Shown here: in pieces, positions 19,478-64,000 of the stretch
How the letters are laid out: the number at the start of each line of letters is the position of its first letter
Numbering within the stretch: position 1 is the stretch's first letter
Source: Antedon mediterranea
Taxonomy: Eukaryota > Animalia > Echinodermata
Length of the DNA stretch: 64,000 nucleotides
Direction of reading: 5' to 3'
Assembly: GCF_964355755.1 (NCBI RefSeq)
Contig: NC_092672.1
Span: forward strand, 32,618,437-32,682,436
The notes under the pieces: generated by a model
Told to the model about the DNA's origin: nothing
What the model saw: the letters and a program-made list of their open reading frames with translations, nothing else
Database searches by the model: none
Position numbers and translations under genes: made by a program

Positions 19478-27591
<8,114 letters not shown>

Positions 27592-36657: not shown

Positions 36658-37551
36658 CTAAATCTTTCGCCATAACATACATTTTACTCGCAGGTTACAC
36701 TGGGTATTAAAGTTAAACAAGTTAGATAATGCATACGCATGCCATGGTTGTTCATTTTGCGGTAACTTATATGGATTTTTCTCACCTCTATTGATGTTAG
36801 AAACCTCAATAAAATTTGCTTTTCGAGCAACAGAACTAAAAAACTCTGTGTTGCCACCATTTGAATTTTCCAAATAGAATATATATGCACCAGGTTTAGC
36901 GTGTTTTAGTAGCTGTACGAGTGTTTGTTCCGAGTTTTTTAGTGCTTTTATAGCCGAAATAAATTTGTTACATGTTATTATATCTGCATTCGCGATCGCT
37001 TCCAGATGGCCATATAGGATTGAATTCCCTGCTTCAAAATGAACATATTTAGCTGATAAATTTCTTGTTTGTTTATTCATATTTAAGCGTAAACATTCAA
37101 AAGCAATTTTCCAAAGAGGATGTCGATCAAGAACTGTTGCAGTAATCCGAATATCTTCATAACCTCTACTGTTGAGAAACATCCTGACACCAAACAAGTC
37201 TGTACCAGGTCCTCCACCCAAAGCGCAGACATTAAGACAGCCACGAAGTGAAACTCTTGCGAATAGAGTGTTTAAATGCATTTCGTTGTAAAATTGCTGT
37301 ATACTGTTAAAGATACCATAGCATAAGGCGGGAAAATAGAGAAACACATAACAGGCTTGGTACGCAGGATCGTCAAAATTAACATCACCAAGACCATATT
37401 GTAAAAATAATCCTTTATACGAGAAAAAAAGTTCCATAATACAATAAGGCAGTTTATCTTTCTTGTCCGTAAGCAACAATAAAATGTCCACACTATTCTT
37501 CATGAGAAGCAGAACGGGTTTACCCAGAGGCCAAATCTGATAATTATTCAT
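36658..37551 (-). CDS. SAM-dependent methyltransferase-like paralogue 2, stand-alone domain (297 aa)
   Basis: Intronless ORF with the same motifs; ends directly after CMLWRKI. Confidence 0.85.
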   Translation of the reverse strand: MNNYQIWPLGKPVLLLMKNSVDILLLLTDKKDKLPYCIMELFFSYKGLFLQYGLGDVNFDDPAYQACYVFLYFPALCYGIFNSIQQFYNEMHLNTLFARVSLRGCLNVCALGGGPGTDLFGVRMFLNSRGYEDIRITATVLDRHPLWKIAFECLRLNMNKQTRNLSAKYVHFEAGNSILYGHLEAIANADIITCNKFISAIKALKNSEQTLVQLLKHAKPGAYIFYLENSNGGNTEFFSSVARKANFIEVSNINRGEKNPYKLPQNEQPWHAYALSNLFNFNTQCNLRVKCMLWRKI

Positions 37552-39921: not shown

Positions 39922-40643
39922 GGTTATTACTATATCCGAAGGCGGAAGGGTCAATAAGACTGACACCCATTACCATGTCAACTTTTTGGAGAGTTTTTTG
40001 AGAAAGGTAGGTTGGTATTATAATTTTTATTTTATTTTATTCAATCGAAACCAACAGCGATAATTACCGCCACTAACAGGTTTGATACAAACAAAGCCAG
40101 GACTGTTTAAACCACCTTGTTTGTATTTATGATATATATTTTTACAGTATGCTTACAGAAACAAAGGCCTAATAGTAGTACAACATTATGGGATTCTCAT
40201 TATATAGAAGTATGCTTTACGGAAGCCATCGGAGGTGACAAACGTCCTGGCCAGCAAAGCGTAAACAAACAACTATAACATAGTGTTTTCAGGGGATTCA
40301 GGACACCACAATTACCTTGGTTTATTTTGATTTACAAGACTACCTCTTGCTTAATCATCTTGGCATATTCTTCAGATACATACGGGTTGAACTCTAGTTA
40401 GTGGCCAGACCAGTTTATTCTATTCAGCTCAGATCACTTGCCATTTACGATTTTATTTTGGAAGCGCCGCTTCAATCGTAAACATCGTCAATGTTAATAT
40501 AACAATCCTGAAAAGGGTCTAAGGTACAACCATGGAGAAATAAGTTAGTTAAATAACTTATTTCTTCATGGTACAACTGATTGCGGACGGGTTTATGTAA
40601 TATTATTAATATATACTATATATTCTAATTCCTTATTAAAGCA

Positions 40644-43600
40644 ATGGATGACAAAAAAAGAACTCGACGTCGTGGTGGTCGTGGTAAAAAAAATAAACAC
40701 AAATGTTTAACAAGCAAATCGCATGTGACAGAGAAAGCTTTGAAAATTGTCTGTCAAAATGGTGGTAGAATTTCCTTACAAGATCTTGAGGAGAAAATTG
40801 GAAAGGTTTCACCCGATCTAGGAAGTTTGGAAAACATCATATCAGACCTCGATCATGAGAATTACCATTTTAAGTTCATAGACTATGAAGATGGTAATGT
40901 TGATATCGAAGTGTACACTCAAGTCAAGATCTGTCAAACATATCAAAAGAATGAATGCACCGATGACTGCACTGATTTACACCTGTGTGGTTACTTTGCA
41001 ACAGGTACACATTCTTTAAATTGTATTAAAAAAAACAATGTGGAAAACAAATTATATGATTTGTTTTAATCTGAAAAACAAAACAAACAAAGTACAGTAC
41101 AGTGCAAACATTATTACAGTTTGAGTAGGTTTTCTATTTTAAAAGACACTAGCCTAGGCCTGAAGGCTAATTCGATCATTTATGATTTTAGCAGTAGTTA
41201 GTTAAACCTAGCCTGTACAGTGCAATGATATGAAAGGTCTTCCATTCTCTGCTACAGCTGGTTCGGATGGAGCATACAGTACATACTGAATATTTGCCAT
41301 CACAATTTTTTATCTACCGACCTCTCAATTTAAAATTCGAAAACAACTTTTGTTAAGCCTAATAATATTTTAATATATTTTATTTTCTAAAATAGCTGTT
41401 GCTGAACGGCCCAACTCACAAATCATTACAAATACAAATCCGGTACATGCAGATAACACCACCCTCAATTCAAACCCAGCAAACCAGAAACATATTTATT
41501 GTGTATTGAATTATTTTATATTGTGTATTATACAATAGGCCATAAATGAGACAATCTGTCACCGTTGAAATAAGTGTCACATTTTTCTTAAACCGCGAAT
41601 GATTGAACATAATAAAATTATGATAACTTTTTCATTATTTTAAAATTCAAGGTTCTTTCTGCCCATGGTTTGAAAGTCAAGGCTGTAAAAAAATGCATCA
41701 GTATTTATCAGAACACAACAAAAAAGTGCTAAAGAACTTTAAAATTGCCTTTTTGTCTCAAGAACATGCATGTACGTTATTTCGATGGGCCTGGCCACAG
41801 TTTACAGTTCCCGATTTCTGCATTCAATACCAAACAAATACAGGTTGTAACAAGCAATGTTGCAGATTTCTACATCTTTGCAAGTAAGAATATATACTGA
41901 GTTTGTCAATAGTTGGTAGAAATTAGTCCTTCCCGCAATTTTCTAGAACGACTGAACAATTGTTGTTATATACAGTTGTTCTAAACTGGGTGACAGTTCT
42001 TGTGTTGGTGTACATCGTCACTCAATTTAATTCTTCCTTGAACATCTGATATTATGCAGCATTCACTTTTAACATTGTTAAAGGAAATTACAAAAGTACA
42101 GAAATTTATTAATTACTTTTTAAAATAATTAAATTGCTGTAAATCATATGCATTTTTGTCTTAACGTCTCTATTTTTTTTCTTCTTTATCTTCGTTTCAG
42201 AAATTATGTAATGGAAACTTGCAAATATGGAACTCAATGCAAGTTTGCTCATGATATTAATGATGAAGAATCAAACATTCAGTTACTGAACCAGTTTAAA
42301 ATTACACTTTGCCGTTCTGATGATATATTCCTCCTGATTAGAGAACGCCGTCAAGGATTTTATCGTCCTGATGTTGAAGTGTTTCAGGAAAGCAGTGATA
42401 CAGAAGGAAGTGAATACAGTCAGGAAGAAGGCAGTGACACAGAAGAAAGAGAATACAGTCAGGAAGAAGGCAGTGATGCAGAAGAAAGAGAAAACAGTCA
42501 GGAAGAAGGCAGTGATGCAGAAGAAAGAGAAAACAGTCAAGAAGAAGGCAGTGATACAGAAGATAGAGAATATAGTCAGGAAGAAGGCAGTGATAGTGAG
42601 GAAAGAGAATACATTCAGAAAAAAGGCAGTGATAATGAGGAAAGTGATAGGCAAAATGAAGACACTTATCATGGGAAAGGTTTTAGTTCTACTAACAAAT
42701 CATATCAGGGAGCAAGCCAATCCAAAAGTATGTTATGCTATCATTTTACCAAATAAAACAAATTTGAGAAAAACACCACATTAATTATGTAATTCAATAA
42801 GAAAGTACCAAATAATGCAAACAAATATACAAATGCTATACAAATTTATATTATATTACAGTATTTAATTTAGTAATTTAGTAATTTTGAATTACTCTAT
42901 TAGTAATGAAAGATTCCAATGCCAGAAAGAGATACCCACCACGTTTTCGTCACAATCATAGTCGAAGAAAAAAACAAGAATGTTTAACAAGTAAATATAT
43001 AGTGATTGAGAAAACACTGCAAGTGGTCTGTCAAAATGGTGGTAGAATTTCTGTTGAAGACCTTAAAGAGGAAGTTGGAAAGATTTCACCTGATCTAGGA
43101 AGTTTGGAAAACATCATATCACACATGGATCATGAGTATTACTATTTCAAGTTTGAGTACAAAGATGGTAATGTTGAAGTGTACACCGATCTCAATATCT
43201 GTCAGTCATACCAAAATAATGAATGCACTTACGATTGTCCAGATTTACACCTGCGTGGTTACTATGCTACAGGTACAGTTGCCAGAGCAAAAATATATAC
43301 TTCACATTTTGGTATATTACATATGTATAATATATATATATATATATAATACTATGTATAATTATTAAGAATAAGTTTTACAAGATATGAGTACTCACCA
43401 TTAATTTCATTGACATTACTGTATACCTAATTAGTAACAGTATATGCTAGTTAAAATTCTATTTAATACAGCATTTGGCAAAGATGTTATAACTTTGTTA
43501 TTAAATGTGTCTTTTTATTATAAGGTTCTTGTTGCTGGTTTGGTCAAAACTGTAAAAAAAGTCATGAATATCAATCAGAACACAAAGTTTTAAAAAACTT

Positions 43601-46600
43601 TGGCATTGCTTTTCTAAGACATGAGGAGTTGAAAACTCTACTTCGATGGAAGTGTCCACAGTTTACAGTTCCCGATTTCTGCATTCAATACCAAACAAAT
43701 ACAGGTTGTAACAAGCAATGTTGCAGATTTCTACATCTTTGCAAGTAAGAATATATACTGAGTTTGTCAATAGTTGGTAGAAATTAGTCCTTCCCGCAAT
43801 TTTCTAGAACGACTGAAAAATTGTTGTTATATACAGTTGTTCTAAACTGGGTGACAGTGCTTGTGTTGGTTCACATCGTCGTTTAATACTTCCTAGAACA
43901 TCTACTGACATTATTAATTACCTACTGCTGTTATCAAAATCCTATGCAATTTTTGTCTTAATGTCTCTATTGTTTTCTTCTTCATCTTCGTTTCAGAAAT
44001 TATGTAATGAAAACTTGCAAATATGGAACTCAATGCAAGTTTGCTCATGATATTAATGATGAAGAATCAAACACTCAGTTACTGAACCAGTTTAAAATTA
44101 CACTTTGCCGTTCTGATGATATATTCCGCCTGATTAGAGAACGCCGTCAAGGATTTTATCGTCCTGATGTTGAAGTGTTTCAGGAAAGCAGTGATACAGT
44201 AGGAAGTGATTATAGTCAGGAAGAAGGCAGTGATACAGGCGAATATAGTCAGAAAGAAGGCAGTGATACAGACGCAAGAGAATACAGTCAGGAAGAAGTC
44301 AGTGATACAGAAGAAAGAGAATACAGTCAGGAAGAAGTCAGTGATACAGAAGAAAGAGAATATTGTCAGGAAGAAGGCAGTGATAGAGAAGATAGAGAAA
44401 ACAGTCAGGAAGAAGGCAGTGATACAGACGCAAGAGAATACAGCCAGAGAGAACGCAGTGATAATGAGGAAAGTGATAGGCAAAAGGAAGACACTTATTA
44501 TGGGAAAGATTTTAGTTCTATTAACAAATCATATCATGGAGCAAGCCAATCCAAAAGTATGTTATGCTATCATTTTACCAAATAAAGCAAATTTGAGAAA
44601 AACACCACATTAATTATGTAATTCAATAAGAAAGTACCAAATAATGCAAACAAATATACACATACTATATACATTTATATTATATTACAGTATTTAATTT
44701 AGTAATTTTGAATTACTCTATTAGTAATGAAAGATTCCAGAGCCAGAAAGATATACCATTACCGACCGCGTCGTCACAATCATAATCGAAGAAAAAAACA
44801 AGAATGTTTAACAAGTAAATCTGTAGTGGTTGAGAAAACACTGCAAGTAGTCTGTCAAAATGGTGGTAGAATTTCAGGGCAAGACCTTAAAGAGAAGGTT
44901 GGAAAGATTTCACCAGATCTAGGAAGTTTGAAAAGCATCATATCAGACATCATGGATCATGAGTATTACTATTTCAAGTTTGAGTACAAAGATGGTAATG
45001 TTGAAGTGTACACCGATGTCAATATCTGTCAGTCATACCAAAATAATGAATGTACCTACGATTGTCCAGATTTACACCTGTGTGGTTACTATGCTACAGG
45101 TACAGTTGCCAGAACAAATATATATATATATTTCACATTTTGGTATTATATTACATACATAATAACCTTTTAAAATACTATATAGAACTATTAAGAATAA
45201 TTTTTAGAAGATATGAGTAGTCAACATTAATTTAATTGACACCTAATTAGTAACAGTATATGTAGTTGAAATGTTAGTTAATACAGCATTTGGCAAAGAT
45301 GTCATACTTTGTTGTTAAATGTGTCTTTTTATTATAAGGTTCTTGTTGCTGGTTTGGTCGTCAAAACTGTATGAAAAGCCATGAATATCAATCAGAACAC
45401 AAAGTTTTAACAAACTTTGGCATTGCCTTTCTGAGAAATAAGCAGTTGAAAACTCTACTTCGATGGAAGTGTCCACAATTTACAGTTCCTGATTTCTGTA
45501 GACCATACCGTGGTACCAGTGGTTGTTGCAAGATATCCTGTAGATTTTTGCATATATGCAGGTAAGTGGCTGATAAAGAAATTAAATAAGTTTTTGTACT
45601 ATCTCATTGTTCTTCACAGAATTAATTTTAATTATTTAATTGTACGTACGCGTCGTGACGTTTGCTCCTAATCACTTCCCATCATACATTGTGCAATGAC
45701 GTTCCTTATTGCCAGTATTGAACGATACTTTGTTATTTGTTATTATTGAGAGAATATGAAATGATGACATTTCTATTTTACTACATTGGTTAAATTATAT
45801 TTGCATTTCAGAAATTACGTTATGAAAACTTGTAAATTTGGAACACGATGTAAATTTGCCCATGACATTTATCAAATAGAGTCTAATGTGGAAATACTGA
45901 AGAGGTTTAAAATTAGTCTTGAATATCAATCGGATGATGTCATCCGCTTGATCAAAGAGCGCCATGCTGGTTTCTATCGCCCTGATGTTGAGGTCTTGGA
46001 GGGTGATGGAGAAGATAGCCATTGTAGTCAGGAAGATGTTATCAAAGAAAGAAAAGAAATCAGGCAACTCCAAGCATTACCTAGGCAAGTTCAGAAACTA
46101 CCTCAGCAAGTCCCGAAATTGTCTAAGCAAGTCCAGATATTACCTAAACAAGTTCAGGCAATGCCCAGTAGCAAAGAAGAAAGAGGTACTAGCAAACCAG
46201 CAAAGGATGCACTTCAAGGGAAAATGAGAGATCTTTGCAAAGATTACCTGAAAGGAAACTGCATTAATGGCAGTATGTGTCAAAAAAAGCATTGCAATCT
46301 TCCTTACCAGTGGCAGTTGTATGTTTATGGTAAAGGGTGGATTGATGTTGGTGATAAACCAAATCTTAAATTAGAAGGCGGATTTTGTAGGAATGTCAAT
46401 GATTCTGCTCGGTTTCCATTGAATTCTACTTGGTAAGTTTTGACCACTTTCTTTTGCTGAGATTATAGTTGGAATTTGATTATTTTCACTTTGGCAAAAT
46501 TCACTTAAAAAAACCATGTTTAGTGAAGTCGGTTTACAGTGCCATCATGGTTAGTCAATTACATGTTGTACATCAACAAAAACAATAGTTTTTCCCATGC

Positions 46601-49600
46601 GTTACTTTTTTGCTAGGTTCATAGGTTAAATTTATTTTATTAATCTTACTCTCTCATTACTTTTTTTTAAAGGAATGTGTGCTTTGAAGACATGGTTGCA
46701 TTTGAAGGGTTGAATGTTTTTTCACTTGAGCGTATTGAGGTCAAAGGTGATGAAGATATATCTGATGCTTATTTGATATCTCCTTGGTCATGGTATTATA
46801 AAGATGAACACGGAAATTGGATTGAATATGGTGAAAAGGTAAGTAACAGGAAAATGTGTCGACAAACTTGAATCTTTGAGGAGATCACCAAGCTATTCTT
46901 GTTTTTAAATGTTGGCGTAAAATTGTGAATGTTCATTTTTCACCAGAACACAAAGCAGACATAAACAGTTCAGATATTGAAAGTTTGTTTAAAGGTTATA
47001 AACATGGAAGATCCACCATTAAATTTAAAGCAGGTAATAAACACTATACTTTGAACTTCTCTACTATGAGCCAAACCAACGATGTATCTGGTACCAGAAG
47101 ACCTGTTCGTCGAAGGCCAGTGGAACAGATAAAGCCAGAAGATGTTAGGAAGTACAGAGAAGATAAACCTTGGTAAAATATTCTTTCATGTCTTTTTCTG
47201 CCTGGTGATTAATATTTATTGGTGTATTCATAAAAAAACGTTTGGCCTACGGGATACAATGTAACGCTAATAGTCTAAAAATAAAACTGGCACAGATGAC
47301 CAGAAAGTGTTCCAATTCAGGCCACTGCGATCAAAATACAAATTTGCATCGTATGATACTGAATTTCACAGTGTGATTCCTTCCCAGCTTGAAACTTAAA
47401 AACACACAGACTATAAAATCAATTGGTTAGATGTTTACTTTACGTTTAATCTCAGCCATGCCTTAACACTCTATTGTCATGTTTATTTTATTTTCTGTTA
47501 GGCCAAACTGTCTTACTACATTTTAAAAACGCTAAATTCAACCAATCAGTATTATTGTGCATTAATTTGTATATGTATATAACGTAAGACGGGTATTTTA
47601 ATCATAAACAAACAAAAAGTAAATAAAAGAAAACAAAATGTATTGTTCAATATAATTAAAAGTACGACCTAGCCAATTATATAGCATTTTTAAAATCTAA
47701 CAATCAATAGTTGATTATAGTATTAGTAGTACTCCAGACTTTTCTTCTTATCTTGTTTAAATCAATTTCTTTCTCCCAATCGGTAATGTACTCGCTTTTA
47801 AAACAGCATATCTAATCTATTTGCAGGCTACACAGTTATACTTTCCCACGGACTTGGGATATGACAGCAAAACCAGACCGTCTTGTAATAGTAAGGAAAG
47901 AAACAAATCGTAAAGAATACAAAGAAATACACAAATTCTTTAAAAGTACACTCCCAGATGGAAAAATAAGAAAAGTTGAACGAGTTCAAAATGAGATTTG
48001 CTGGGAAACATTTGTACGGTAAATACATTATTATTTGAATTTTGCTAGAAATTTACTAATTTAGCAGATTTTTTTTGTTTACTATTATTAATTATTAACA
48101 CATTTTAGTGTATTCTTTGTCATTTGATTGGTTAATTCGTATCACATGATCTTCATTATTAGTTCTATTTAACAGAAATGTGATATTGGTGATGGTGATA
48201 TTCAACGATACTATTGAATGTACAGCTTTTTAAATGTTAGAATATTGTGTAATGCAAATGGTGTAACTATTGGTGATCCTGCTGAAACCATCACTCAAGA
48301 TCATAAATTCTTCCTTGCTATGTATGCTACTACTTCATAAATGTTATAAAATGCTTTTTTTTTTCTTATAAGGCAAAAGGAAACGATGATGAAGAAAAAT
48401 TCTTGTAGAAAAGTTAAAGAACTCCAACTGTTTCATGGAACAACGCAAGATAAAGTTGATGATATCTGTCGCGATAATTTTGACTTCCGCTTGAGGGGTA
48501 TTGCTAAACACCGCAAACCCCGCAAACCTCCAAAAAAACATAGCAAACCCCATCGAACCAACATAAAAGTGATTGAATCATGTAGTGTACAACCTACTGG
48601 GTATATCCATGTAAAAAAAAAATTAAATTTCTACTGTTAACAACTTATTTTTGGGGTAAAACATCATTTTTTGGTCAAAAATGATTGCTAAACCCCGCAA
48701 ACCTCCAAAAAAATATAGCAAACCCCACCGAACCAACATAAAAGTGATTGAATCATGTAGTGTACAACCTACTGGGTATATCCATGTAAAAAAAATATTA
48801 AATTTCTACTGTTAACTATTTATTTTTGGGGTAAAACATCATTTTTTGGTCAAAAATGATTGCTAATTTTTAACCAAAAAATGATGTTTTATCCGCAAAA
48901 AAGTAGTTAACAGTAGAAATTTAATATTTATATACCCAGTGGGTCGTACACTACATTATTCAATCACTTTAATGTTGGTTCGGTGGGGTTTGCTATGGTT
49001 TTTTGGAGGTTTGCGGGGTTTAACAATCATTTTTGACCAAAAAATGATGTTTTACCCCAAAAATAAGTTGTTAACAGTAGAAATTTAATATTTTTTTTAC
49101 ATTGATATACCCAGTGGGTTGTACACTACATGATTCAATCACTTTTATGTTGGTTCGGTGGGGTTTGCTATGTTTTTTTGGAGGTTTGCGGGGGTTTGCG
49201 GGGTTTGCGGTGTTTAGCAATACCCCGCTTGAGCGGTACACGAGTTGGTCATGTTTATGGCAAAGGAGCTTATTTCGCAAGGTCAGCAAAGTATTCCAAT
49301 AAGTTCGCTAAACAAGATAGTGCTGGTAAAAAGAGAATGTTTGTTGCAAGAGTTCTGGTTGGTAGCTACACAGTTGGTACAAAGGATACGTGCCGTCCCC
49401 CATATAAAGACCCCACAAATAAGGAAAAGGGGTCGTATAACTCTTGTGTTGATAATATAACTAATCCAAGTATTTTTGTAGTGTTTGATAACAATCAGGT
49501 TTATCCAGAATATCTGATCACATATACAGTTTCATCGGATTGTGAAACTTTTAATATGGCATCATACATGCAATTGTATTGTGGTAGCAGCCAAAATGTA

Positions 49601-50958
49601 GCAAGCATACCGATCAGTCGACCATCAAGTCTTGTTCCAACTGCTAGTCATCCATTGTCCAGTAACACAAATTCAGCAAGCAAGGTCAGTTCACCTACCA
49701 CTCGATTTTCAAGACTTGCTTCAGGCGATAATTCATCTTTCAGTAGTCCAAGTTCAACCAGCCTACATACTATTCGGTCTTCACAAACTCCTTCAAGTAC
49801 AAACCAAACCAACAGTAGCCAAAGTTCTATTGCAAATATCCCACATACTAGTCGGTTGTCAAGAAGGGCTTTAAGTACAATCAACCATCTAACAGTAGCA
49901 AAAGTTCTATTTGGAATATCCCAAGTTCTGTTGGGAATATCCCAAGTTCTATTGCAAATATCCCGCCTACTAGTCGGTTGTCAAGAAGTGCTTCAAGTAC
50001 AAATCAACCATCTAACAGTAGCAAAAGTTCTATTTGGCATATCCCAAGTTCTGTTGGGAATATCCCAAGTTCTGTTGGGAATATCCCAAGTTCTATTGCA
50101 AATATCCCACCTACTAATCGGTTGTCAAGAAGTGCTTCAGGTACAAACCAACCATCTAACAGTAGCAAAAGTTCTATTAGGAATATCCCAAATTCTGTTG
50201 GGAATATCTCAAGTTTTATTGCAGATTTTCCGCCTACTAGTCGGTTGTCAAGAAGTGCTTCAGGTACAAACCAACCATCTAACACTAACAGTATCCCAAG
50301 TTATATTGGGAATATTCCAAGTTCTGTTGGGAATATCCCAAGTTCTATTGCAAATACCCCACCAACTAGTCGGTTGTCAAGAAGTGCTTCAAGTACAAAT
50401 CAACCATCTAACAGTAGCAAAAGTTCTATTTGTAATATCCCAAGTTCTGTTGGGAATATCCCAAGTTCTATTGCAAATATCCCGCCTACTAGTCGGTTGT
50501 CAAGAAGTGTTTCAAGTACAAATCAACCATCTAACACTAACAGTATCCCAAGTTATATTGGGAATATCCCAACTTCTGTTGGGAATATCCCAAGTTCTGT
50601 TGGGAATATCCCCAGTTCTATTGCAAATATCCCACCTACTAATCGGTTCTCAAGAAGTGCTTCAAGTACAAACCAACCATCTAACAGTAGCAAAAGTTCT
50701 ATTTGTAATATCCCAAGTTCTGTTGGGAATATCCCAAGTTCTATTGCAAATACCCCACCAACTAGTCGGTTGTCAAGAAGTGCTTCAAGTACAAATCAAT
50801 CATCTAACAGTAGCCAAAGTTTTATTGGGAATATCCCAAGTTCTATTGCAAATATCCCACCTACTAGTCAGTTGTCAAGAAGTGCTTCAAGTACAAATCA
50901 ACCATCTAACACACAAGACAGCAAACCAAATAACAACACAAGATGTATCTGTATGTAA
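40644..50958 (+). CDS. PARP12/ZAP(ZC3HAV1)-like protein: 3 CCCH zinc-finger modules, CCCH-WWE-WWE, mono-ART PARP domain, S/N-rich repeat tail, CaaX; interrupted by a MITE and a 1-nt frameshift
   Basis: Exons 40644-41004, 41652-41883, 42201-42727, 42904-43272, 43525-43744, 43997-44556, 44725-45099, 45339-45561, 45812-46432, 46673-about 46838, about 46947-47172, 47827-48018, 48373-end. Motifs LHLCGY, LPYQWQ, WYYKDEHGNWIEYG, YTLNFSTMSQTN..GTRRPVRRRP, ERVQN, LFHGT, YGKGAYFA, MFVARVLVG, YNSCVD...PSIFVVF..NQVYPEYLITY. Confidence 0.88.
48496..49225. mobile_element. palindromic MITE inserted in the PARP catalytic exon, 8-bp TSD
   Basis: TIR gggtattgctaaacaccgcaaacc; TSD cgcttgag at 48488-48495 and 49226-49233; removal restores DFRLSGTRVGHVYGKG. 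Confidence 0.93.
49840..50910 (+). repeat. coding tandem repeat of the PARP tail (PPTSRLSRSASSTNQPSN + NIPSSVG units)
   Basis: Composite repeat with variable numbers of 21-nt aatatcccaagttctgttggg units. Confidence 0.9.
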
Positions 50959-52344
50959 TATATTTTTTATTTGAACACACTCTGCTTGTTTAGCAGCTTT
51001 GATCGATCATTTAAGTTTGGTTTGTCTTTTGACATGTATACAATTAGCCTAGTTTTAGAACGTCTTATTATTCAGAAATACAAACAACTACAACGTGACT
51101 GATTGTTTGAAAAGATAAGTGTAAAGCACGCGCATAATTAATTTTCTTAATTTTTAAAATTAAATCGTATGACCATTTAGCTTGCTGGGCAAGTGTAACA
51201 ATACATTAATATATTAATGTCTTAATCAATGGTATACCTCAATTAATGTTTTCAATATTTTACTGTTTTATTTATTATTCTTTTTTGCATGTATGGACAA
51301 CCATTGATGCACGGATGACGGCATTTTTTTAAAGGAAAAAAATAGAAACATATTTTTGACTTTTGTAAAAATGATTTATTATATTCTCTCTGTATAAATA
51401 CAAATATATTTGTATAAAAGTAGATTTTTTGTGTCTTACTTGGGTTCATCCCACTTTTATTGACATAAATACATATATATTGTACATTACATTTCTGTTG
51501 TACACATCACTTTATATGTTCTGATCCATTGTGTTTTTAAATTACGTTTACATATATCTTAGCTTATATACTTTAATATACTTTATTATTAACTATTTCT
51601 TATAAAAAAAACAGTAATCCATTAACATGTATATTTATCCTATTAACATTTGTTTTTAATCATGCATATTTGCTTTCTTTTTGAGTTTATCTTTTTCATT
51701 ATTATCTTTTAACACTTAACTTTTTTATAGAGTTAAACATTTTGTGTTTAGAGTATTTAACTTTTTTTAAACCCATAATTTATTTTCCAACTAAATACAT
51801 AATTTATTTTCCAACTAAATATATAATTTATGTTCAACATACATTTCAAGTAATTTTATTCCATTTACATATATTTTATCTTGTTTGTATCATGATGTAT
51901 GATACAAAAGTAGATTTTAGTAAACAATGCATGTTAGGCGACTATATATTCTGTTTACCATCGATAGAAAATTAATAAATGTTGAATTTTAAAGAATTAT
52001 GTGACCCAGAACATAATTATAAAAAGTATAATAAATAATATGTTTTAATATTAAATGATTTGATAAAGTTGCACAGTTGAATTGTCCTTTTTATCGTTGT
52101 TTACCATTAATTTTCAACACATTGTCAGGACTACATTGTTTGGTTCTTATTTGTTCATTTCAAGTACATAGGCCTTTGGACTTAAATACTAAAAACATAA
52201 CTAAGACTATAACCTAAGATAACTACATATTTCGTCTTTCATAAGCAAAATTGTCTTAAACTATAAGAAAAGTTTGTGTTTGAAAACATAACTAACAGAT
52301 AAACTAAAGATAAACATAAATAAATGTTAGTATAAACTTGTTTC

Positions 52345-52908
52345 TTAAACCTTCTTTAGAGTGTGTCCAACATACACTCCTACCTTTAGGCCCAAATCAA
52401 AATTGTTCATATCTTGAATAGCCTTCGATGCAGTATCATGGTCTTCGAAGCTTACAAAACCGAAGCCTCTGCTTTTTGAATTTTCATCATGCATCACTTT
52501 AGCACTGACGATTTTTCCATATTTATTAAACACTTTCAGTTGATCATCTGTAATATCAATGTTCAAGTGCTTGATATAAATGTTTCTGTAACTCTTTATC
52601 TTATCAGCCATGTTGGCATCTCTGGCTTTACTAGGAATCCAATGACCCACATACACTTTTTTGCCATTGAGCAACATGCCGTTGACTTTACTTACAGCCT
52701 TTGAGGCATCATCTTCTTTCTCAAATTGAATAAACCCATAGCCTTTTGACTCATTGTTATCATCACATTGAATCTTACAAGAAAAAATGTTACCAAATTC
52801 TGAAAATGTATCATACAGAGCTTTGCTATCAATTGACTTGTCCAGGTTTTTTAATGAAGACGTTTCCCGTGCCAGTACGACGTAAAGTTGGATTACGTTG
52901 AGAACCAC
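52345..52908 (-). pseudogene. out-of-frame continuation of the captured PABPC sequence (RRM2-RRM3)
   Basis: [49 protein letters not shown]; separated from the upstream ORF by two +1 indels at about 52904 and 52850. Confidence 0.82.
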
Positions 52909-55900
52909 ATAATATGGATTGGGCGCCCTTTCATAGCATCAAAGTTCATTGTGTTTAGGGCTCTTTCTGCATCTGCGGCTTTTTGAAAATTTACATACGC
53001 GTAGCCAAGGGAACGTCTGGTGAAGGCATCACGACAAACGCGTATGGATAAAATGGGTCCAGCTGTTGAGAATTTTTCAAAAAGCATAGCTTCTGTAACT
53101 TCAGGATTCAAATCTTCAACATATAAAGAGGCAATACAGTAGTTGGACACTTCTTGCGCATTTATCATTTTGTTTTGTGGTTTTATTTCTGGTTTTGGCT
53201 TTTGAATATCTGACATAGTGGAATACAGTGAGGAACTTGTTGGTGATGCCAGTACTAAAGTAGTCGACAAAGTTACAGGATGCGTTGGTTTGATTTGTGG
53301 TTTTATTTCTGGTTTTTGCTTTGGAATATCTGACATAGTGGAATACAGTGAGGAACTTGTTGGTGATGCCAGTACTCTGTCCATGTTATAACTTGTTCTA
53401 TTAGTAGTCGACAAAGTTACAGGATGCGTTGGTTTGATTTGTTGTTTTATTTCAGGTTTTGGCTTTTGAATATCTGATCTAGTGGAATACAGCGAGGAAC
53501 TTGTTGGTGATGCCAGTATTCTGTCCATGTTATAACTTGTTCTATTAGTAGTCGACAAAGTTACAGGATGCGTTGGTTTGATTTGTGGTTTTATTTCTGG
53601 TTTTTGCTTTTGAATATCTGACATAGTGGAATACAGTGAGGAACTTGTTGGTGATACCAGTACTCTGTCCATGTTAAAACTTGTTCTATTAGTAGTCGAC
53701 AAAGGTACAGGATGCGTTGGTTTGATTTGTGGTTTTATTTCTGGTTTTTGCTTTGGAATATCTGACATAGTGGAATACAGTGAGGAACTTGTTGGTGATG
53801 CCAGTACTCTGTCCATGTTATAACTTGTTCTATTAGTAGTCGACAAAGTTACAGGATGCGTTAGTTTGATTTGTGGTTTTATTTCTGGTTTTGGCTTTTG
53901 AATATCTGACATAGTGGAATATAGTGAGGAACTTGTTGGTGATGCCAGTACTCTGTCCATGTTATAACTTGTTCTATTAGTAGTCGACAAAGTTACAGGA
54001 TGCGTTGGTTTGATTTGTGGTTTAATTTCTGGTTTTGGCTTTTGAATATCTGATCTAGTGGAAGACAGTGAGGAACTTGTTGGTGGTGCCAGTACTCTGT
54101 CCATGTTATAACTTGTTCTATTAGTAGTCGACAAAGTTACAGGATGCGTTGGTTTGATTTGTGGTTTTATTTCTGGTTTTTGCTTTGGAATATCTGACAT
54201 AGTGGAATACAGTGAGGAACTTGTTGGTGGTGCCAGTACTCTGTCCATGTTATAAATTGTTCTATTAGTAGTCGACAAAGTTACAGGATGCGTTGGTTTG
54301 ATTTGTTGTTTTATTTCTGGTTTTGGCTTTTGGATATCTGATCTAGTGGAATACAGTGAGGAACTTGTTGGTGATGCCAGTATTCTGTCCGTGTTATAAC
54401 TTGTTCTATTAGTAGTCGAAACAGTTACAGGATGCGTTGGTTTGATTTGTGGTTTTATTTCTGGTTTTTGCTTTGGAATATCTGACATATTGGAATACAG
54501 TGAGGAACTTGTTGGTGATGCCAGTACTCTGTCCATGTTATAACTTGTTCTATTAGTAGTCGACAAAGTTACAGGATGCGTTGGTTTGCTTTGTGGTTTT
54601 ATTTCTAGTTTTTGCTTTCGAATATCTGACATAGTGGAATACAGTGAGGAACTTGTTGGTGATGCCAGTACTCTGTCCATGTTATAACTTGTTCTATTAG
54701 TAGTCGACAAAGTTACAGGATGCGTTGTTTTGATTTGTGGTTTTATTTGTGTTTTTTGTTTTGGAATATTTGACATAGTGGAATACAGTGAGGAACTTGT
54801 TGGTGATGCCAGTACTCTGTCCATGTTATAACTTGTTCTATTAGTAGTCGACAAAGTTACAGGATGCGTTGGTTTGATTTGTGGTTTTATTTCTGGTTTT
54901 TGCTTTGGAATATCTGACATAGTGGAATACAGTGAGGAACTTGTTGGTGATGCCAGTACTCTGTCCATGTTATAACTTGTTCTATTAGTAGTCGACAAAG
55001 TTACAGGATGCGTTGGTTTGATTTGTGGTTTTATTTCTGGTTTTTGCTTTGGAATATCTGACATAGTGGAATACAGTGAGGAACTTGTTGGTGATGCCAG
55101 TACTCTGTCCATGTTATAACTTGTTCTATTAGTAGTCGACAAAGTTACAGAATGCGTTAGTTTGATTTGTGGTTTTATTTCTGGTTTTGGCTTTTGAATA
55201 TCTGACATAGTGGAATACAGTGAGGAACTTGTTGGTGATGCCAGTACTCTGTCCATGTTATAACCTGTTCTATTAGTAGTCGACAAAGTTACAGGATGCG
55301 TTGGTTTGATTTGTGGTTTTATTTCTGGTTTTGGCTTTTGAATATCTGACATAGTGGAATGCAGTGAGGAACTTGTTGGTGGTGCCAGTACTCTGTCCAT
55401 GTTATAACTTGTTCTATTAGTAGTCGACAAAGTTACAGGATGCATTGGTTTGATTTGTGGTTTTATTTCTGGTTTTTGCTTTGGAATATCTGACATAGTG
55501 GAATACAGTGAGGAACTTGTTGGTGATGCCAGTACTCTGTCCATGTTATAACTTGTTCTATTAGTAGTCGACAAAGTTAAAGGATGCGTTCGTTTGATTT
55601 TTTGTTTTATTTCTGGTTTTGGCTTTTGAATATCTGATCTAGTGGAATACAGTGAGGAACTTGTTGGTGATGCCAGTATTCTGTCCATGTTATAACTTGT
55701 TCTATTAGTAGTCGACAAAGTTACAGGATGCGTTGGTTTGATTTGTGGTTTTATTTCTGGTTTTTGCTTTGGAATATCTGACATAGTGGAATACAGTGAG
55801 GAACTTGTTGGTGATGCCAGTACTCTGTCCATGTTATAACTTGTTCTATTAGTAGTCGACAAAGTTACAGGATGCGTTGGTTTGCCTTGTGGTTTTATTT

Positions 55901-58862
55901 CTAGTTTTTGCTTTGGAGTATCTGACATAGTGGAATACAGTGAGGAACTCGTTGGTGATGCCAGTACTCTGTCCATGTTATAACTTGTTCTAGTAGTCGA
56001 CAAAGTTACTGGATGCGTTGTTTTGATTTGTGGTTTTATTTGTGTTTTTTGCTTTGGAATATTTGACATAGTGGAATACAGTGAGGAACTTGTTGGTGAT
56101 GCCAGTACTCTGTCCATGTTATAACTTGTTCTATTAGTAGTCGACAAAGTTACAGGATGCGTTGGTTTGATTTGTGGTTTTATTTCTGGTTTTTGCTTTG
56201 GAATATCTGACATAGTGGAATACAGTGAGAAACTTGTTGGTGATGCCAGTACTCTGTCCATGTTATAACTTGTTCTATTAGTAGCCGACAAAGTTACAGG
56301 ATGTGTTGGTTTGCTTTGTGGTTTTATTTCTGGTTTTTGTGCTTTAACAACTGACCCAACGGAGGACATTGAGAAACGTGTTGGTGATGTCATATAGCCT
56401 TTGCTATTAGTACTCGACGTGGTTACAAGATGCGTTGTTTTGTTTTGTATTTTTATTTTTGGTTTTTGTGTTTTCAAAACTGACCCAACGGAGGACATCG
56501 AGGAACTTGTTGATGATGTTGTATAACTTTTGCTATTAGTATTCGACGTGGTTACAGGATAATAAGTTGTTTTACCTTCTGTTTTTTCTGATTTTTGCTT
56601 TTCAATACCTGATTGAATAGAATACGCCGAGGACGTTGTGGAACTCTTTATCTTATCAGCTATGATGGCATCTCTGGCTTTACGAGGAATCAAATGACCT
56701 ACATACACTTGTTTGCCACTGAGCAACATGCCGTTGACTATACGTATAGCCTTTGAGGCATCATCGTCTTTCTCAAATCGGATAAACCCATAGCTTTTTG
56801 ATTCATTGTTTTCATCACATAGAATCTTACAAGACAAAATGTTGCCAAATGCTGAAAATGTATCATACAGAGCTTTGTTATCAATTGACTTGTCCAAGTT
56901 CATAATGAAGACGTATTCCATGCCAGTACGTTGAGACCACGTAATACGGATTGGGCGCCTTTCGATAGTATCAAATTTCATTGTGTTTAGGGCTCTTTCT
57001 GCATCTGCGACTTTTTGAAAATTGACATGTGCGTAGCCAAGCGAACGTCTGGTGATGGCATCACGACAAACGCGTACGGATAAAATTGGTCCAGCTGTTG
57101 AGAATTTTTCAAAAAGCATAGCTTCTGTAACTTCAGGATTCAAATCTCCAACATATAAAGAGGCAATAGAGTAGTTGGACACTGCTTGCGCATCTATCAT
57201 TTTGTTTTGTGGTTTTACCGTTTCAGGTTTTTGCTTTTGAATATCTGATCTAGTGGAATACATTGAGGAACTTGTTGGTGATGCCAATACTCTGTCCAGA
57301 TTATAACCTTTGATGTTAGCAGTCGACGTGGTTACAGGATGGGAAGCTGTTTTTCGTTTTTCTGCTTCAATACGTGGCCCAACAGAATACTTTGTAGAGC
57401 TCAACGGTGATGCCAGTACTCTCTCCATGTCATACTCTTTGATATTAACAGTCGACGTGGTTACAGGATGGGAAGCGGCTTTTCTTTGTGTTTTTAGTAT
57501 TGTTGGTTTTTTTTCAATGGAATACACAGAGGAACTTGTTGGTGATGCCAGTGTTCTTTTCCAATTAGCAGTCAACATGGCTAGAGGACGGTCTTTTTGT
57601 CCACCTGGCTGCTGTAGGCCTACTGTGTTCAACTTATATGTTCTGGAATTTTCTTTTGATTCAAGTGAAACCCTATCATAACGATCATTGCTTTCAGAAG
57701 GGATCACATAACTACTGAATGGTTGCCTTGCAGAAATATTATATTGCTGACTTTTGTGGATGGGAATTCTCCAATCTCTAGGAGGCTGCGATAGTGTAGG
57801 TGATGTGAGCACATTTGTCTTCTGAGGAATGTAGTTCTGGGTTTGGTTAGGTAGTATCGCTTGTTTTGCACCCAGAAAATTGCCTGAATAATATAAAGCA
57901 GAATACTGATTTGTATAGCTGAAATTTCTCCCATCACTGCATGGTGAAACAGGAGGTATCTGATGAGTCTTTCGCCATAACATACATTTTACTCGTAGAT
58001 TACGCTGTGAACTAAATTTAAAATATTTGGATAACTCTTCTGTATGCCATGACTGTTCTGTGTTGGGCAACCGGTATGAATTTTCTTCACCTCGATCAAT
58101 GCTGTAAACGTTAACAAATTGTGCCTGTCGAGCAACAGAACTAAAAAATTCCGTATTACCTCCTTTTGAATTTTCTAAATAGAAAATAAAGGCACCTGGT
58201 TTAGCTTGGTTTAGAAGTCTTAGGAGTGTCTGTTGTGAATTCGGTAGTGCCTTTATAGCAGATATAAACTTACTACATGTAATCAGATCTGCACTAGCTA
58301 TGGCTTTTACATGTTCATTGGAAATATATCCTGTAATACCGACTTCAAAGTGAAGATAGCCAACTGATATGCTAGATTTTCCACCTAGACTTGATAATAA
58401 ACAATTAAATGCAATTTTCCAATTGGGATGTCGATCAAAAACAGTTGCACAAATCATAACTTCTGTATAACCGTTACTATTGAGAAACATCTTAACACCA
58501 AACAAGTCTGTTCCAGGTCCTCCACCCAAAGCGCAGACATTAAGACAGCTACGAAGTGAAGTAGGCCCCAATAGTGTGTCCAAGTATCCCTTGTGATAGA
58601 ATTGTTGTAGGCTGTTGGTAATACCATGACATAACACGGGGAAATAGAGGAAAACGTAACATGCTTGGTAAGCAGGATCGTCAAAATCAACATCTCCACG
58701 ACCATATTTGAGAGACGATCCTGTGTATGAGTTATAAAGTTGTACAATGCAACTAGCCAGTTGATCACGACTTTTGTTGGTATACCTTAAAATATCGCGT
58801 ACTCCATCGTTCGTGAGAAGCAGAACAGGTTTGCCTAGAGGCCAAGTCTGGTAATTATCCAT
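52893..58862 (-). CDS. SAM-dependent methyltransferase-like paralogue 3 fused to PABPC-derived RRM1-RRM2, about 22 x 48-aa repeats and a second RRM1 (1989 aa)
   Basis: Single uninterrupted ORF. MTase-like domain at about 57970-58862. [45 protein letters not shown] and [25 protein letters not shown] (about 56640-57200) are recognisably cytoplasmic PABP. Confidence 0.88.
53180..56340 (-). repeat. 144-bp coding tandem array, about 22 units
   Basis: Identical phase recurs at 53341, 54781 and 55501 (multiples of 144); unit [48 protein letters not shown]. Confidence 0.95.
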
Positions 58863-58973
58863 TCTTTAAGTGGTAGGCCTATTATGTAATAAGCTTGGTA
58901 CTGGTTCATGAAAGATGTGTAATAATATGATGAATAACTAACGTTTAGAAAAACATATTATTTTTCAATATTC

Positions 58974-59898: not shown

Positions 59899-60745
59899 TA
59901 TGGAACGCCGTTTACGCAACATTTCGATGATATGAATTTTATGACGCGATATGTGAATGAAATGCATCGATATGAATTGAATGGCGTGATATATGAATGA
60001 AATGTTTTGAATTGAATGCTTTGAATTGAATGTTTTGAATGAAATGTTTTGAATGAAATGTTTTGAATTGAATGTTTTGAATAAAATGTTTTGAATGAAA
60101 TGTTTTGAATGAAATGTTTTGAATGAAATGTTTTGAATGAAATGTTTTGAATGAAATGTTTGAATTGAATTGAAAAGTCAAACTATTGGCGGCGTATGTC
60201 ATTCCCGCTCGCGATTTTTTTTCAACCTCTTAATAGGCCTAAGCATGGGTACCCTCATCTCCTTTCAACGCTGTCATCAATATGAATCCTTTACAGAGAC
60301 TCCCTAACAGACCTGAAACATTGGAATACATATTTCCGAACCCAGGTCTGTTAGGATTCTCTGTAAAGGCAGCGTGGAAGAAAGGAGATGAGGGTACCCA
60401 GGCTTAGGCCTAAGAGGTTGAGAAAATAATCGCGAGCGAGAATGACATACGCCACCAATAGTTTGACTTTTCAATTCAATTCAAACATTTCATTCAAAAC
60501 ATTTCATTCAAAACATTTCATTTAAAACATTTCATTCAAAACATTTCATTCAAAACATTTCATTCAAAACATTTCATTCAAAACATTTCATTCAAAACAT
60601 TTCATTCAAAATATTCAATTCAAAGCATTCAATTCAAAACATTTCATTCATATATCGCACCATTTAATTCATATCGATGCATTTCATTCACATATCGCTT
60701 CATAAAATTCATATCATCGAAATGTTGCGTAAACGGCGTTCCATA
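59899..60745. mobile_element. fully palindromic MITE with TATGG termini and 6-bp TSD (IS3EU-like)
   Basis: TIR tatggaacgccgtttacgcaacatttcgatgatatgaat; TSD gtagga at 59893-59898 and 60746-60751; arms contain 14-bp gaatgaaatgtttt repeats. Confidence 0.85.
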
Positions 60746-62132: not shown

Positions 62133-63731
62133 TTACAGCAAAATACATGGGCATGTGGTGGAACGGTGTTGAGATTCTGTTCTTTGACTTCTTTGTGATT
62201 CTGCTCTTTGGTGACTTCGATCTTCTTGACTCTGATCTGAATCTGAATCTAGATAACATGTCACATAATGGTTAGGTAATTGTCTTTGCTCTTGCAGTTG
62301 TTGTATTTGAGCTTGCAGTTGTTGTTGGCTTTGAGCTTGCAGTTGTTGTTGTCTTTGCGCTTGCAGTTGTTGTTGTCTTTGCGCTTGCAGTTGTTGTTGT
62401 CTTTGTTTTTGCAGTTGTTGTTGTCTTTGAGCTTGCATTTGTTGTTGTCTTTGAGCTTGCAGCTGTTGTTGTCTTTGAGCTTGCAATTGTTGTTGTCTTT
62501 GAGCTTGCAGTTGTTGTTGTCTTTGAGCTTGCAATTGTTGTTGTCTTTGAGCTTGCAGTTGTTGTTGTCTTTGAGCTTGTAGTTTTTGTTGTCTTTGCGA
62601 TTGCAGTTTTTCTCTCTGTGCTTGTAACTGTTGTTGTCTTTGCGCTTTCAATCTGGTTTCTCTTTGCGCTTCATAGTTTGTTGAAGCAATCGGTACACTA
62701 TCATAGAATCGACCACTGTTTTCTGTTATTGTAACAACATGATGGTCAGATGTTTGCCTTCTAGATTTTGATATCGATGACTCATGTCCATGTCCTGTAT
62801 AGTTTAAATTTCTCGCATCACTGCGTGATGAATAGTTTGCAGTAGGCATCTGTCCAATCTTTCGCCATAACATACATTTTATTCGTAGATTACGCTGTGA
62901 ACTGAAGTCAAACAATTGGGACAACTCTTTTATCTGCCAAGATTGTTCTGCCATGGGCAGCTGATACGGATTATCCTCACCTCGATCAATAGTAGCAACC
63001 TCAACAAAGTTTGCCTGCCTAGCAACAGAACTAAAAAACTCTGTATTACCACCTTTTGAATTTTCCAAATAGAATAAGTAGGCACCTGATTTAGCATGGC
63101 TTAGTAAATCTTTAAGTGTATGTCGTGCATTTCGTAGTACTCGTATAGCTGATATAAACTTGCTACATGTGATCAGATCTGCTTTGGCTATGGCTTTAAG
63201 ATGTTCAGATGCAACACGTCTACTAATGGCTTCAAAATGAAGATAATCAGCTGATAACTGTGGTTGCTGATCTAGGCTTGCTAGTAAGCATTCAAAAGCA
63301 ACATCCCAGCTGGAATGTCTATCAAGAACAGTCGCAGTAATCCGAATATCTTCATAACCTCTACTGTTGAGAAACATCCTGACACCAAACAAGTCTGTAC
63401 CGGGTCCTCCGCCCAAAGCGCAGATATTAAGACAGCCGCGGATTGAAACTCTTTCTAATAGCATGTTTAAATGCATGTCAACGTAGAATTGCTGTAGACT
63501 GTCGAAGATACCATAGCATAAGGCGGGAAAATAGAGAAACACATAACAGGCTTGGTACGCAGGATCGTCAAAATCTACATCTCCGTCACCTTGATAAAGC
63601 GATGAGGGTTTATAACAGTCGACAAGTTCCTGCATGCATTCGGTCAGTTCGTCATGCCTGTCGGTGTACAGTAATATTCTATGGACCCCTTGCTTCATGA
63701 GAAGCAGAACAGGTTGTCCAAATCTTTCCAT
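62133..63731 (-). CDS. SAM-dependent methyltransferase-like paralogue 4 with QAQRQQQL repeats and C-terminal CaaX (CPCILL)
   Basis: Intronless 532-aa ORF with the same domain at about 62860-63731; 24-bp repeat at about 62290-62650; ends C-I-L-L-stop. Confidence 0.87.
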   Translation of the reverse strand: MERFGQPVLLLMKQGVHRILLYTDRHDELTECMQELVDCYKPSSLYQGDGDVDFDDPAYQACYVFLYFPALCYGIFDSLQQFYVDMHLNMLLERVSIRGCLNICALGGGPGTDLFGVRMFLNSRGYEDIRITATVLDRHSSWDVAFECLLASLDQQPQLSADYLHFEAISRRVASEHLKAIAKADLITCSKFISAIRVLRNARHTLKDLLSHAKSGAYLFYLENSKGGNTEFFSSVARQANFVEVATIDRGEDNPYQLPMAEQSWQIKELSQLFDFSSQRNLRIKCMLWRKIGQMPTANYSSRSDARNLNYTGHGHESSISKSRRQTSDHHVVTITENSGRFYDSVPIASTNYEAQRETRLKAQRQQQLQAQREKLQSQRQQKLQAQRQQQLQAQRQQQLQAQRQQQLQAQRQQQLQAQRQQQLQAQRQQQMQAQRQQQLQKQRQQQLQAQRQQQLQAQRQQQLQAQSQQQLQAQIQQLQEQRQLPNHYVTCYLDSDSDQSQEDRSHQRAESQRSQRTESQHRSTTCPCILL

Positions 63732-64000
63732 CTGATGTGCTCCGGGTGAAAGTGTTAATATGAGTAAAATGAAATAACAGTAAATATAGTAGTAGATCTG
63801 GTAAGTCCAAATAACCCTGCAGCCTACACGAGACCTTTCGACCGAAGTAACTTTAGTAGCTGTAGGTCTATCTATAAAAATCTAAGATAATTTCGAACAG
63901 ATTGCGGGAACTGAGAACAAATTTCCTCAAGTAGAAGGCCTAGCGTCTATACAATTTCGATCATTAACTATGTTTTGCTACAGGACGCGAGAACTTGGAA

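Follow-up and report, generated by a model that had tools for sequence, protein, structure and literature searches.

How does a methyltransferase (MTase) come to carry pieces of a poly(A)-binding protein, and does it use them to reach RNA? The question is raised by a 64,000-nucleotide stretch of the genome of the feather star Antedon mediterranea (contig NC_092672.1, positions 32,618,437 to 32,682,436; hereafter the window), on whose minus strand a frame of 1990 codons is open from stop to stop (52893..58865). From the ATG at 58862 to the stop at 52893, it gives a 5970-nt open reading frame (ORF) of 1989 aa, whose start agrees with the first residues of another Antedon mediterranea protein, XP_071946187. 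The encoded order is an MTase-like domain, a linker, the first two RNA-recognition motifs (RRM1-RRM2) of a cytoplasmic poly(A)-binding protein (PABPC), then a 48-aa repeat in about 21 copies, and finally another RRM1. This confirms the ORF reported in the initial annotation as a junction of the two domain types; the PABP block opens with [20 protein letters not shown] at aa 556, position 57200. Our preferred reading, to which we give slightly less than an even chance, is that of an MTase family tethered to RNA through captured PABPC RRMs, with a decaying copy in the window.

The captured RRMs derive from the host's own PABPC. The first captured block matches RRM1-RRM2 of human PABPC1 with an E-value of 2e-73, and its best match by identity is Antedon mediterranea PABPC P0006, the source of the capture (80% over 99% of the block); the resemblance extends from the host start codon onward. 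In the fusion ORF, Pfam RRM_1 has three matches (E 3e-55), and two further RRMs lie in the adjacent frame, at 52938-52345. A host PABPC contig of sequencing run X5 departs from the alignment at 56826, its coding strand reading GT immediately behind the SCK codon; the fusion continues unbroken at this point. Two further host exon ends are probable: one at a joint near 52972 (runs X1 and X5), the other near 52590, where an X1 contig of 549 letters aligns over 52590-52780 alone. Because at least one host intron is lacking, the captured RRMs are a retrocopy, and the retrocopy-derived chimera proposed earlier is supported.

A PABPC tree of 16 rows, none omitted, places the captured rows, two from the window (blocks 1 and 2) and two from XP_071946187, in one clade (97/96) within crinoid PABPC, so the capture was a single event. 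Capture from the divergent PABP paralogue P0066 is not supported by this tree. Both ends of the captured stretch are rearranged. The idea that the repeat unit was once the PABPC 5' untranslated region (UTR) is likewise not supported: the 25-30 or so letters of host UTR that appear as loose ends are, by eye, unlike the window upstream of 57200. The absence of RRM4 and MLLE, noted from the outset, is borne out, as a host RRM4-MLLE query matched only RRM2/RRM3 positions in the window, and MLLE nowhere. The captured copies thus differ from PABPC in being intron-less, in lacking RRM4, the proline-rich linker and MLLE, and in a linker deletion, accelerated substitution, and shuffled and duplicated RRMs. 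The captured set falls short of the four RRMs plus MLLE of a PABPC, and XP_071946187 scores 295.9 against a TIGR01628 cut-off of 497.1. Separately, Anneissia japonica has three PABPC-like proteins (P0007, P0008 and P0066), two of them divergent in the ribonucleoprotein (RNP) motifs, so PABP duplicates are recurrent in crinoids.

The fusion is seen in a second gene and in a second organism. Among the sequencing runs, X1 is possibly the sample behind the window assembly, X8 is a different sample and X5 is organism B; X9 and X10 yielded short shallow pieces only and are not used as evidence, and contig depths are unable to rank the genes. In organism B one 883-nt contig covers 57199-57995, from the MTase end to the PABP start, with 21 differences, listed indels of -3, +27 and -3 nt, and 36 gap letters in total, 3 of them unlisted. 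Other X5 contigs contain RRM1-RRM2 with an identical 18-nt linker deletion (7 differences in 257 nt), or RRM2 plus repeat; the fusion stretch of organism B is thus pieced together from several contigs, none covering all of it. XP_071946187, annotated merely as 'uncharacterized', is itself a fusion: its MTase, 81% identical to that of the window, is followed by a short linker, RRM2, a spacer, RRM2 and RRM3. Misassembly or sequencing error, a possibility raised at the start, is ruled out by the contigs of another organism and by this annotated protein. The MTase-RRM architecture, then, recurs in XP_071946187 and organism B; a scan of 131 other family members, out of 147 listed matches besides P0001-P0003, showed no RRM, and the two Anneissia proteins nearest to it have none either. 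On present data, it is limited to Antedon-like feather stars.

One X8 contig links window position 57755 to 56900 with 20 other letters interposed; the net loss, 834 nt, keeps the frame, and hand translation of the joint gives the junction peptide of XP_071946187. A splice is ruled out here: the ends are not GT..AG, 20 foreign letters lie between them, and a separate annotated gene matches. Since X8 also contains exact pieces of the window gene, organism A has both fusion genes. We treat X8 as RNA because its host PABPC contig is continuous over 52753-53166, where DNA-like runs break; that it is an RNA run is a guess backed by this contig. In this RNA-like run, a contig of the sister gene reaches from the end of the MTase into RRM2.

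An internal duplication accounts for blocks 1 and 2 and for the repeat units that lie upstream of each (81% over 957 nt). The 144-bp repeat between them takes up about 1150 aa, and degenerate units extend to about 56605. This repeat, the second RRM1, and the linker deletion and insertions described next all go beyond the initial annotation. In block 1, 6 residues (18 nt) are deleted from the RRM1-RRM2 linker; in host numbering, Y57H, N101Y and K105M are changed, and F103, Y142, F144 and M163 are retained. Block 2 has +1 insertions at about 52901 and 52849, the first of which gives the stop at 52893-52895. Both are found in an X1 contig (52539-52974) and an X8 contig (52694-52974), each with 0 differences and 0 gaps, which rules them out as assembly errors, and the host PABPC contig has one letter fewer at each site. 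RRM2-RRM3 of block 2 is therefore genuinely out of frame. For organism B, an X7 contig over 52848-52974 has 12 differences and 1 unplaced gap. Of the two fusion genes, the window copy, with its eroded RRM1-2 pair and broken RRM2-3, would be the more degenerate, and its RRMs appear to be decaying.

Do such RRMs still direct the enzyme to RNA? A series of results weighs against it. Blocks 1 and 2 are separated by 32 non-synonymous and 9 synonymous differences, a ratio of non-synonymous to synonymous rates (dN/dS) of 1.01 (0.53-2.34), raised because RRM2 of block 2 is already out of frame. Near-invariant PABP columns are hit 10 times against 10.2 expected and 14 against 12.2 in block 1, and 15 against 13.7 and 14 against 12.6 in the RRM2 pair of XP_071946187; no RRM1 or RRM2 copy departs from the chance rate at these columns. 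The apparent constraint on RRM3 is confounded by changes in the host lineage. BLOSUM scores of the RRM substitutions fit a neutral model (p 0.10-0.53), the missing stops are not significant (P 0.21-0.65), and the repeat variants are neutral as well (6 synonymous of 39, about 9 expected). The inter-RRM linker of block 1 is 6 aa short, and the equivalent of Y56, the stacking tyrosine of RRM1, is His there; the F142 equivalent is kept. A PABP double mutant of Y56 and F142 is reported to lose poly(A) affinity more than 100-fold (PMC2887948). At the transcript level, no RNA run is listed among those that contain the sequence, no contig of X8 spans MTase and RRM of the window gene, and the exact-match X8 pieces of that gene are indistinguishable from DNA carry-over. 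Neutral RRM evolution, which the initial annotation had listed, together with a failure to bind RNA, among the outcomes that would refute its reading, is thus seen in part: since the duplication, conserved columns have not been avoided and changes are no milder than random. The comparison of the host with block 2 reaches further back: it gives 15 aa and 50 nt differences and, on an even split of the synonymous changes, a lineage dN/dS of roughly 0.18-0.25, therefore early constraint on the captured RRMs.

All this would also be expected if the MTase were the working unit and the PABPC retrocopy lay in a hypervariable tail, with no targeting role. The RRMs would have been constrained early, as a stand-alone retrogene or in an early fusion, and would now be amplified and eroded like the repeat unit. 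We regard this account, the main rival to our reading, as plausible, though clearly short of likely. Beyond the neutrality tests, the two real frameshifts in block 2 agree with it, as does the lack of RRMs in the other family members; the tails of the paralogues are unrelated repeats or absent, and since one paralogue has none, tails look dispensable. Yet the reading frame upstream of the RRMs is preserved through several indels, in two genes and two species, which speaks for use of the RRMs because no terminal CaaX remains to account for it. RRM2 is in frame in both fusion genes, and its F142 and M161 equivalents are retained in every copy, together with the RNP1 aromatics (not statistically significant). 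The presence of the sister fusion in RNA-like X8 also argues against a mere passenger, and for the tethered enzyme that we prefer.

The window contains 4 MTase paralogues with 63-67% identity to the fused domain, each a single open frame. Their dN/dS of 0.34-0.41, with all upper bounds at or below 0.60, indicates purifying selection; for the two fusion MTases, a hand estimate from 50 nt and 29 aa differences is about 0.46. The best matches are crinoid, led by LOC117109372 of Anneissia japonica (51%). A profile search recovered 482 family representatives at E<=0.001 from bacteria and invertebrates; the 20 that were looked up include crinoid, starfish, brittle star, centipede, scorpion and spider proteins and one acidobacterial cluster. 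In a tree of 109 members (FastTree, midpoint root, taxa known for about 20 of the 109 rows), a short bacterial-type clade stands apart from an animal-type clade. A recent transfer from bacteria to crinoids is not supported, as the crinoid sequences cluster with other echinoderm and arthropod proteins, away from the bacterial-type clade. None of the 109 members matches NCBIfam, and the family is apparently undescribed in invertebrates. PADLOC gave weak matches to C3a159 (13/109) and matches to mad2 (2/109); a link to CRISPR was dropped, C3a159 being only a 3-member table entry with a value of 27.06 (PMC6546367).

A CaaX-like end occurs in 11 of 59 animal-type database proteins, all 11 among the 30 proteins of at least 340 aa. 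Anneissia P0001 ends in CCILL, and P0128, P0142, P0144 and others also have CaaX-like ends. This suggests that CaaX-ended members are prenylated, membrane-placed methyltransferases in echinoderms and arachnids.

The AlphaFold2 model of the fused domain (mean predicted local distance difference test score 95.7) has 7 strands in a Rossmann-like fold. Motif I, GGGPGTD, is present with G113-G117 and D119, as is D143, the acidic residue that follows strand 2; these residues are conserved in 91-100% of the 109 members, and W148 and S201 are intact. In a fold search the first three matches have Z-scores of 19.1 (root-mean-square deviation 3.7, 254 residues aligned), 19.0 (3.8, 247) and 15.6 (3.6, 253), the next row falling to 14.2. 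All three are chains of mitoribosomal small-subunit assembly intermediates, which we take to be Rsm22/METTL17. This is the best whole-domain structural match, to an RNA-associated fold that binds S-adenosylmethionine (SAM), and top matches are class I MTases; the TMq is 0.56-0.58 and the identity 9-12%. The match is, however, limited to the MTase fold, the domain company is different, and the Rsm22 Pfam entry gave no match in scans of the window proteins, the fusion relatives or the family members. Direct sequence searches of solved structures with the MTase returned nothing at E<0.2, and the 109-sequence profile returned METTL6 only (E about 4e-4). A viral fold search with the MTase found generic MTases only.

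Many relatives of the family match PF11312 (Methyltransf_34), which presumably includes yeast Bmt6; a spider relative carries the name '25S rRNA like protein'. At E<=1, PF11312 has no match in the window domain or in P0001, P0002 or P0003. Since the relatives from the profile search pass the Pfam gathering threshold and the crinoid domain does not, we consider the latter a distant PF11312 branch. Like Bmt6 (YLR063W), it is a class I Rossmann MTase; it differs in having no PF11312 match of its own, in its tandem expansions and repeat or CaaX tails, and here in its RRMs. The fusion counts neither as a PABPC nor as an Rsm22 orthologue, and it stays below the threshold for PF11312.

The fold leaves room for a domain that binds SAM and RNA without methylating, or that methylates protein, with RRM2 docking on partners of the eIF4G or Paip type so that the fusion acts as a dominant-negative PABP that damps translation. 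In its favour, METTL17, the nearest solved fold, has no evidence of methyltransferase activity in the accessible text of PMC11785013, a point that weighs against our reading. Block 1 retains an unaltered helix 1 in RRM2, and all copies have the M161 equivalent, whereas several RNA-face residues are changed. An Asp conserved in 94% of the family is Glu at 230 in the fused domain, and a His conserved in 72% is Leu at 77. We nevertheless hold this explanation to be quite improbable: the SAM-binding motifs are intact and conserved across the 109 aligned members, the bacterial kin described below are paired with an enzyme that fits a methylated base, and yeast Bmt6 is an active enzyme, a mainly cytoplasmic methyltransferase forming 3-methyluridine (m3U) at U2843 of 25S rRNA (PMC3950682).

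The clue to the chemistry comes from bacteria. We inspected 83 bacterial-type loci, namely 3 viral contigs and the best 80 of 111 genome matches, all retrieved with one sub-clade query. DUF1848 lies directly downstream of the MTase in 43, an AlkB-like dioxygenase is adjacent in 37, no locus has both and 3 have neither; L003:1294-2774, L001:2995-4780 and L004:4154-5831 are examples of such pairs with one partner or the other. The AlkB-like gene is downstream in 18 loci and divergent in 19, many of the divergent ones cyanobacterial; for the single AlkB partner that was searched, the nearest relatives are ALKBH3 (E 3e-37) and ALKBH2. AlkB-type enzymes take off methyl groups from N1 of adenine and N3 of cytosine (PMC4738411). 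In 80 of 83 loci the bacterial kin thus have DUF1848 or a demethylase of the ALKBH2/3 type as neighbour, which points to N1/N3 base methylation, and the simplest reading is that the bacterial MTase would methylate the pairing face of a base and its partner would remove or convert the mark. For the crinoid enzyme this chemistry is extrapolated, since the loci are mutually related, hence non-independent, and about 20% identical to the crinoid domain, which again counts against us. UG25 reverse transcriptase systems also have an MTase domain associated with DUF1848 (PMC9226505). They share this partner with the bacterial relatives and differ in that the accessible text of that source does not mention an ALKBH2/3-like alternative; reverse transcriptase is not among the recurrent neighbours listed for our loci. 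Type I restriction genes and serine recombinases recur near the bacterial relatives, and several loci lie inside such loci or elements. Independently of the crinoid gene, these MTase pairs with DUF1848 or ALKBH2/3-like enzymes are candidates for an undescribed methylate-and-erase, toxin-antitoxin or defence module.

That the MTase is aimed at RNA, as the initial annotation proposed, is plausible and gains from what is seen in the relatives of the family. The history of the tethered enzyme that we favour begins with a tandem family of single-exon MTases whose repeat tails are interchangeable; a CaaX ends one paralogue and an Anneissia relative. PABPC cDNA comprising RRM1-RRM3, from which at least one intron is missing, entered the tail of one member once, probably by retroposition. 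Repeat-plus-RRM cassettes were then duplicated and deleted, to give MTase-RRM1-RRM2-(repeat)21-RRM1 here and MTase-RRM2-RRM2-RRM3 in XP_071946187. The RRMs may have replaced a membrane anchor by an anchor to RNA or messenger ribonucleoprotein, the target being probably single-stranded, A-rich cytoplasmic RNA, messenger or viral. By analogy with its relatives, the enzyme would add a methyl group to the pairing face of a base, of the m3U, 3-methylcytidine or 1-methyladenosine type, stalling ribosomes or polymerases. Its neighbours and the dynamics of the family hint at a possible role in innate defence, beside genes of the PARP12/ZAP type.

Such a fusion would work like an RRM-guided RNA methyltransferase and would have arisen like TRIMCyp. 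In TRIMCyp and jingwei, an abundant housekeeping mRNA was retroposed into the 3' part of another gene and provided a new binding module, with a function that has been shown; here, in contrast, an RNA-binding module is joined to an enzyme, and the captured part has a dN/dS of about 1 since its duplication. TRMT2A and ALKBH8 combine an RRM and a class I MTase in one chain and act on RNA. Unlike the fusion, they are tRNA enzymes of ancient and conserved single-copy genes, their RRMs and MTase families are unrelated to those here, and they do not derive from a retrocopy. A literature search that covered few subscription papers found nothing on the fusion, the animal MTase family or the MTase-AlkB pairing.

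The initial annotation offered another use for the RRMs, as an integrated decoy for viral anti-PABP factors. They would then mimic host PABP and be hit by such a factor, which would release or activate the MTase. An immune-type neighbourhood would suit the decoy, fast and mosaic RRM evolution could reflect an arms race, and TRIMCyp, a restriction factor with a retrocopied housekeeping domain, sets a precedent. Picornaviral proteases, however, cut PABP in the RRM4-MLLE half, and this C-terminal half was not captured. A decoy should resemble its target, and block 1 is only 82% identical to host PABPC over residues at which the PABPC of Antedon and Anneissia are nearly the same; no crinoid virus factor was identified. 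With no positive evidence for it, we judge the decoy very improbable.

The neighbourhood itself consists of PARP12/ZAP-type genes, whose winged-helix and CCCH matches are weak and whose PARP domain is closest to PARP12 (E 2e-25). In vertebrates, both PARP12 and ZAP act against viruses and localise to stress granules (PMC7552005), and we take this adjacency as a weak pointer to a defence role. A wider proposal, which we think unlikely, is that the animal members are unrecognised invertebrate defence MTases, kin to the bacterial eraser and DUF1848 modules, which would damage single-stranded RNA at its pairing face. Most would be placed by a variable tail, often a prenyl anchor, and feather stars would have re-aimed one at polyadenylated RNA through the capture and multiplication of RRMs from PABP itself; if true, this would be a TRIMCyp-like invention yielding an RNA-alkylating restriction factor. 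Whatever its role, the locus is a young chimeric gene caught in the middle of domain shuffling, in a group with few studied genes, and it opens up an uncharacterised animal MTase family whose predicted chemistry is a methyl mark removable by ALKBH2/3-type enzymes. If the RRMs target the MTase, the fusion would be a naturally occurring base-methylating enzyme directed at poly(A), relevant to antiviral immunity in invertebrates and usable as a tool for RNA editing; failing that, it would be a clear case of a retrocopy absorbed into a repeat tail.

Table 1. Components of the fusion gene and related features, in window positions.
Feature	Position	Strand	Basis or remark
Fusion ORF, 1989 aa, introns none evident	52893..58862	-	ORF listing; start shared with XP_071946187
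Class I SAM-dependent MTase domain, aa 1-298, PF11312-related, METTL17/Rsm22-like fold	57969..58862	-	Profile and structure
Low-complexity linker, last part 2-3 degenerate repeat units	57201..57968	-	Sequence comparison
PABPC retrocopy block 1, RRM1 + RRM2, in frame	56640..57200	-	From host start codon
144-bp (48-aa) S/T/P/K-rich tandem repeat, 21.4 copies, 95% matches	53259..56339	-	Repeat analysis
PABPC retrocopy block 2, RRM1, in frame at ORF C-terminus, G17E in RNP2	52905..53168	-	Pfam, alignment
Two +1 insertions, RRM1-RRM2 linker of block 2	52849..52901	-	Contigs of X1 and X8
RRM2-RRM3 remnant of block 2, out of frame, ends directly after RRM3	52345..52848	-	Pfam, alignment
Unfused MTase paralogue, Q-rich repeat tail ending CPCILL (CaaX-like)	62133..63737	-	
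Unfused MTase paralogue without tail	36658..37551	-	
Unfused MTase paralogue, long Q/T-rich repeat tail	30865..33879	-	
Tandem PARP12/ZAP-like exons: winged helix, CCCH fingers, PARP catalytic domain	40629..50974	+	Between MTase paralogues

Several further features of the window were noted. The PARP12/ZAP-like stretch comprises at least three tandem N-terminal units and one PARP catalytic exon, which is followed by a 123-bp Ser-rich repeat tail (49822-50911). Downstream of the fusion gene, a 2161-nt X8 contig is identical over 52023-52477 and then skips 51404-51922; the contig is a candidate 3' UTR of either the fusion gene or the PARP gene. Joints related to this skip are found in X1, X5 and X7 (region 51177-51404). 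With this contig and an X8 haplotype or paralogue skipping 51404-51922, the region 51000-52300 failed as a silent control. An 870-bp inverted repeat (59899-60745) lies directly upstream of the fusion gene. At 2702-5270 on the minus strand is a broken element of the LINE (long interspersed nuclear element) type, with reverse transcriptase Pfam matches in two frames and an endonuclease-like frame judged by eye; it possibly represents a class of retroposition machinery in the genome. Units of 175 bp are common to 22285-22821 and 48495-49226, in inverted pairs about 90% alike that resemble miniature inverted-repeat transposable elements. A 38-bp minisatellite of 37.6 copies (22916-24343) has several frames open and is probably non-coding.

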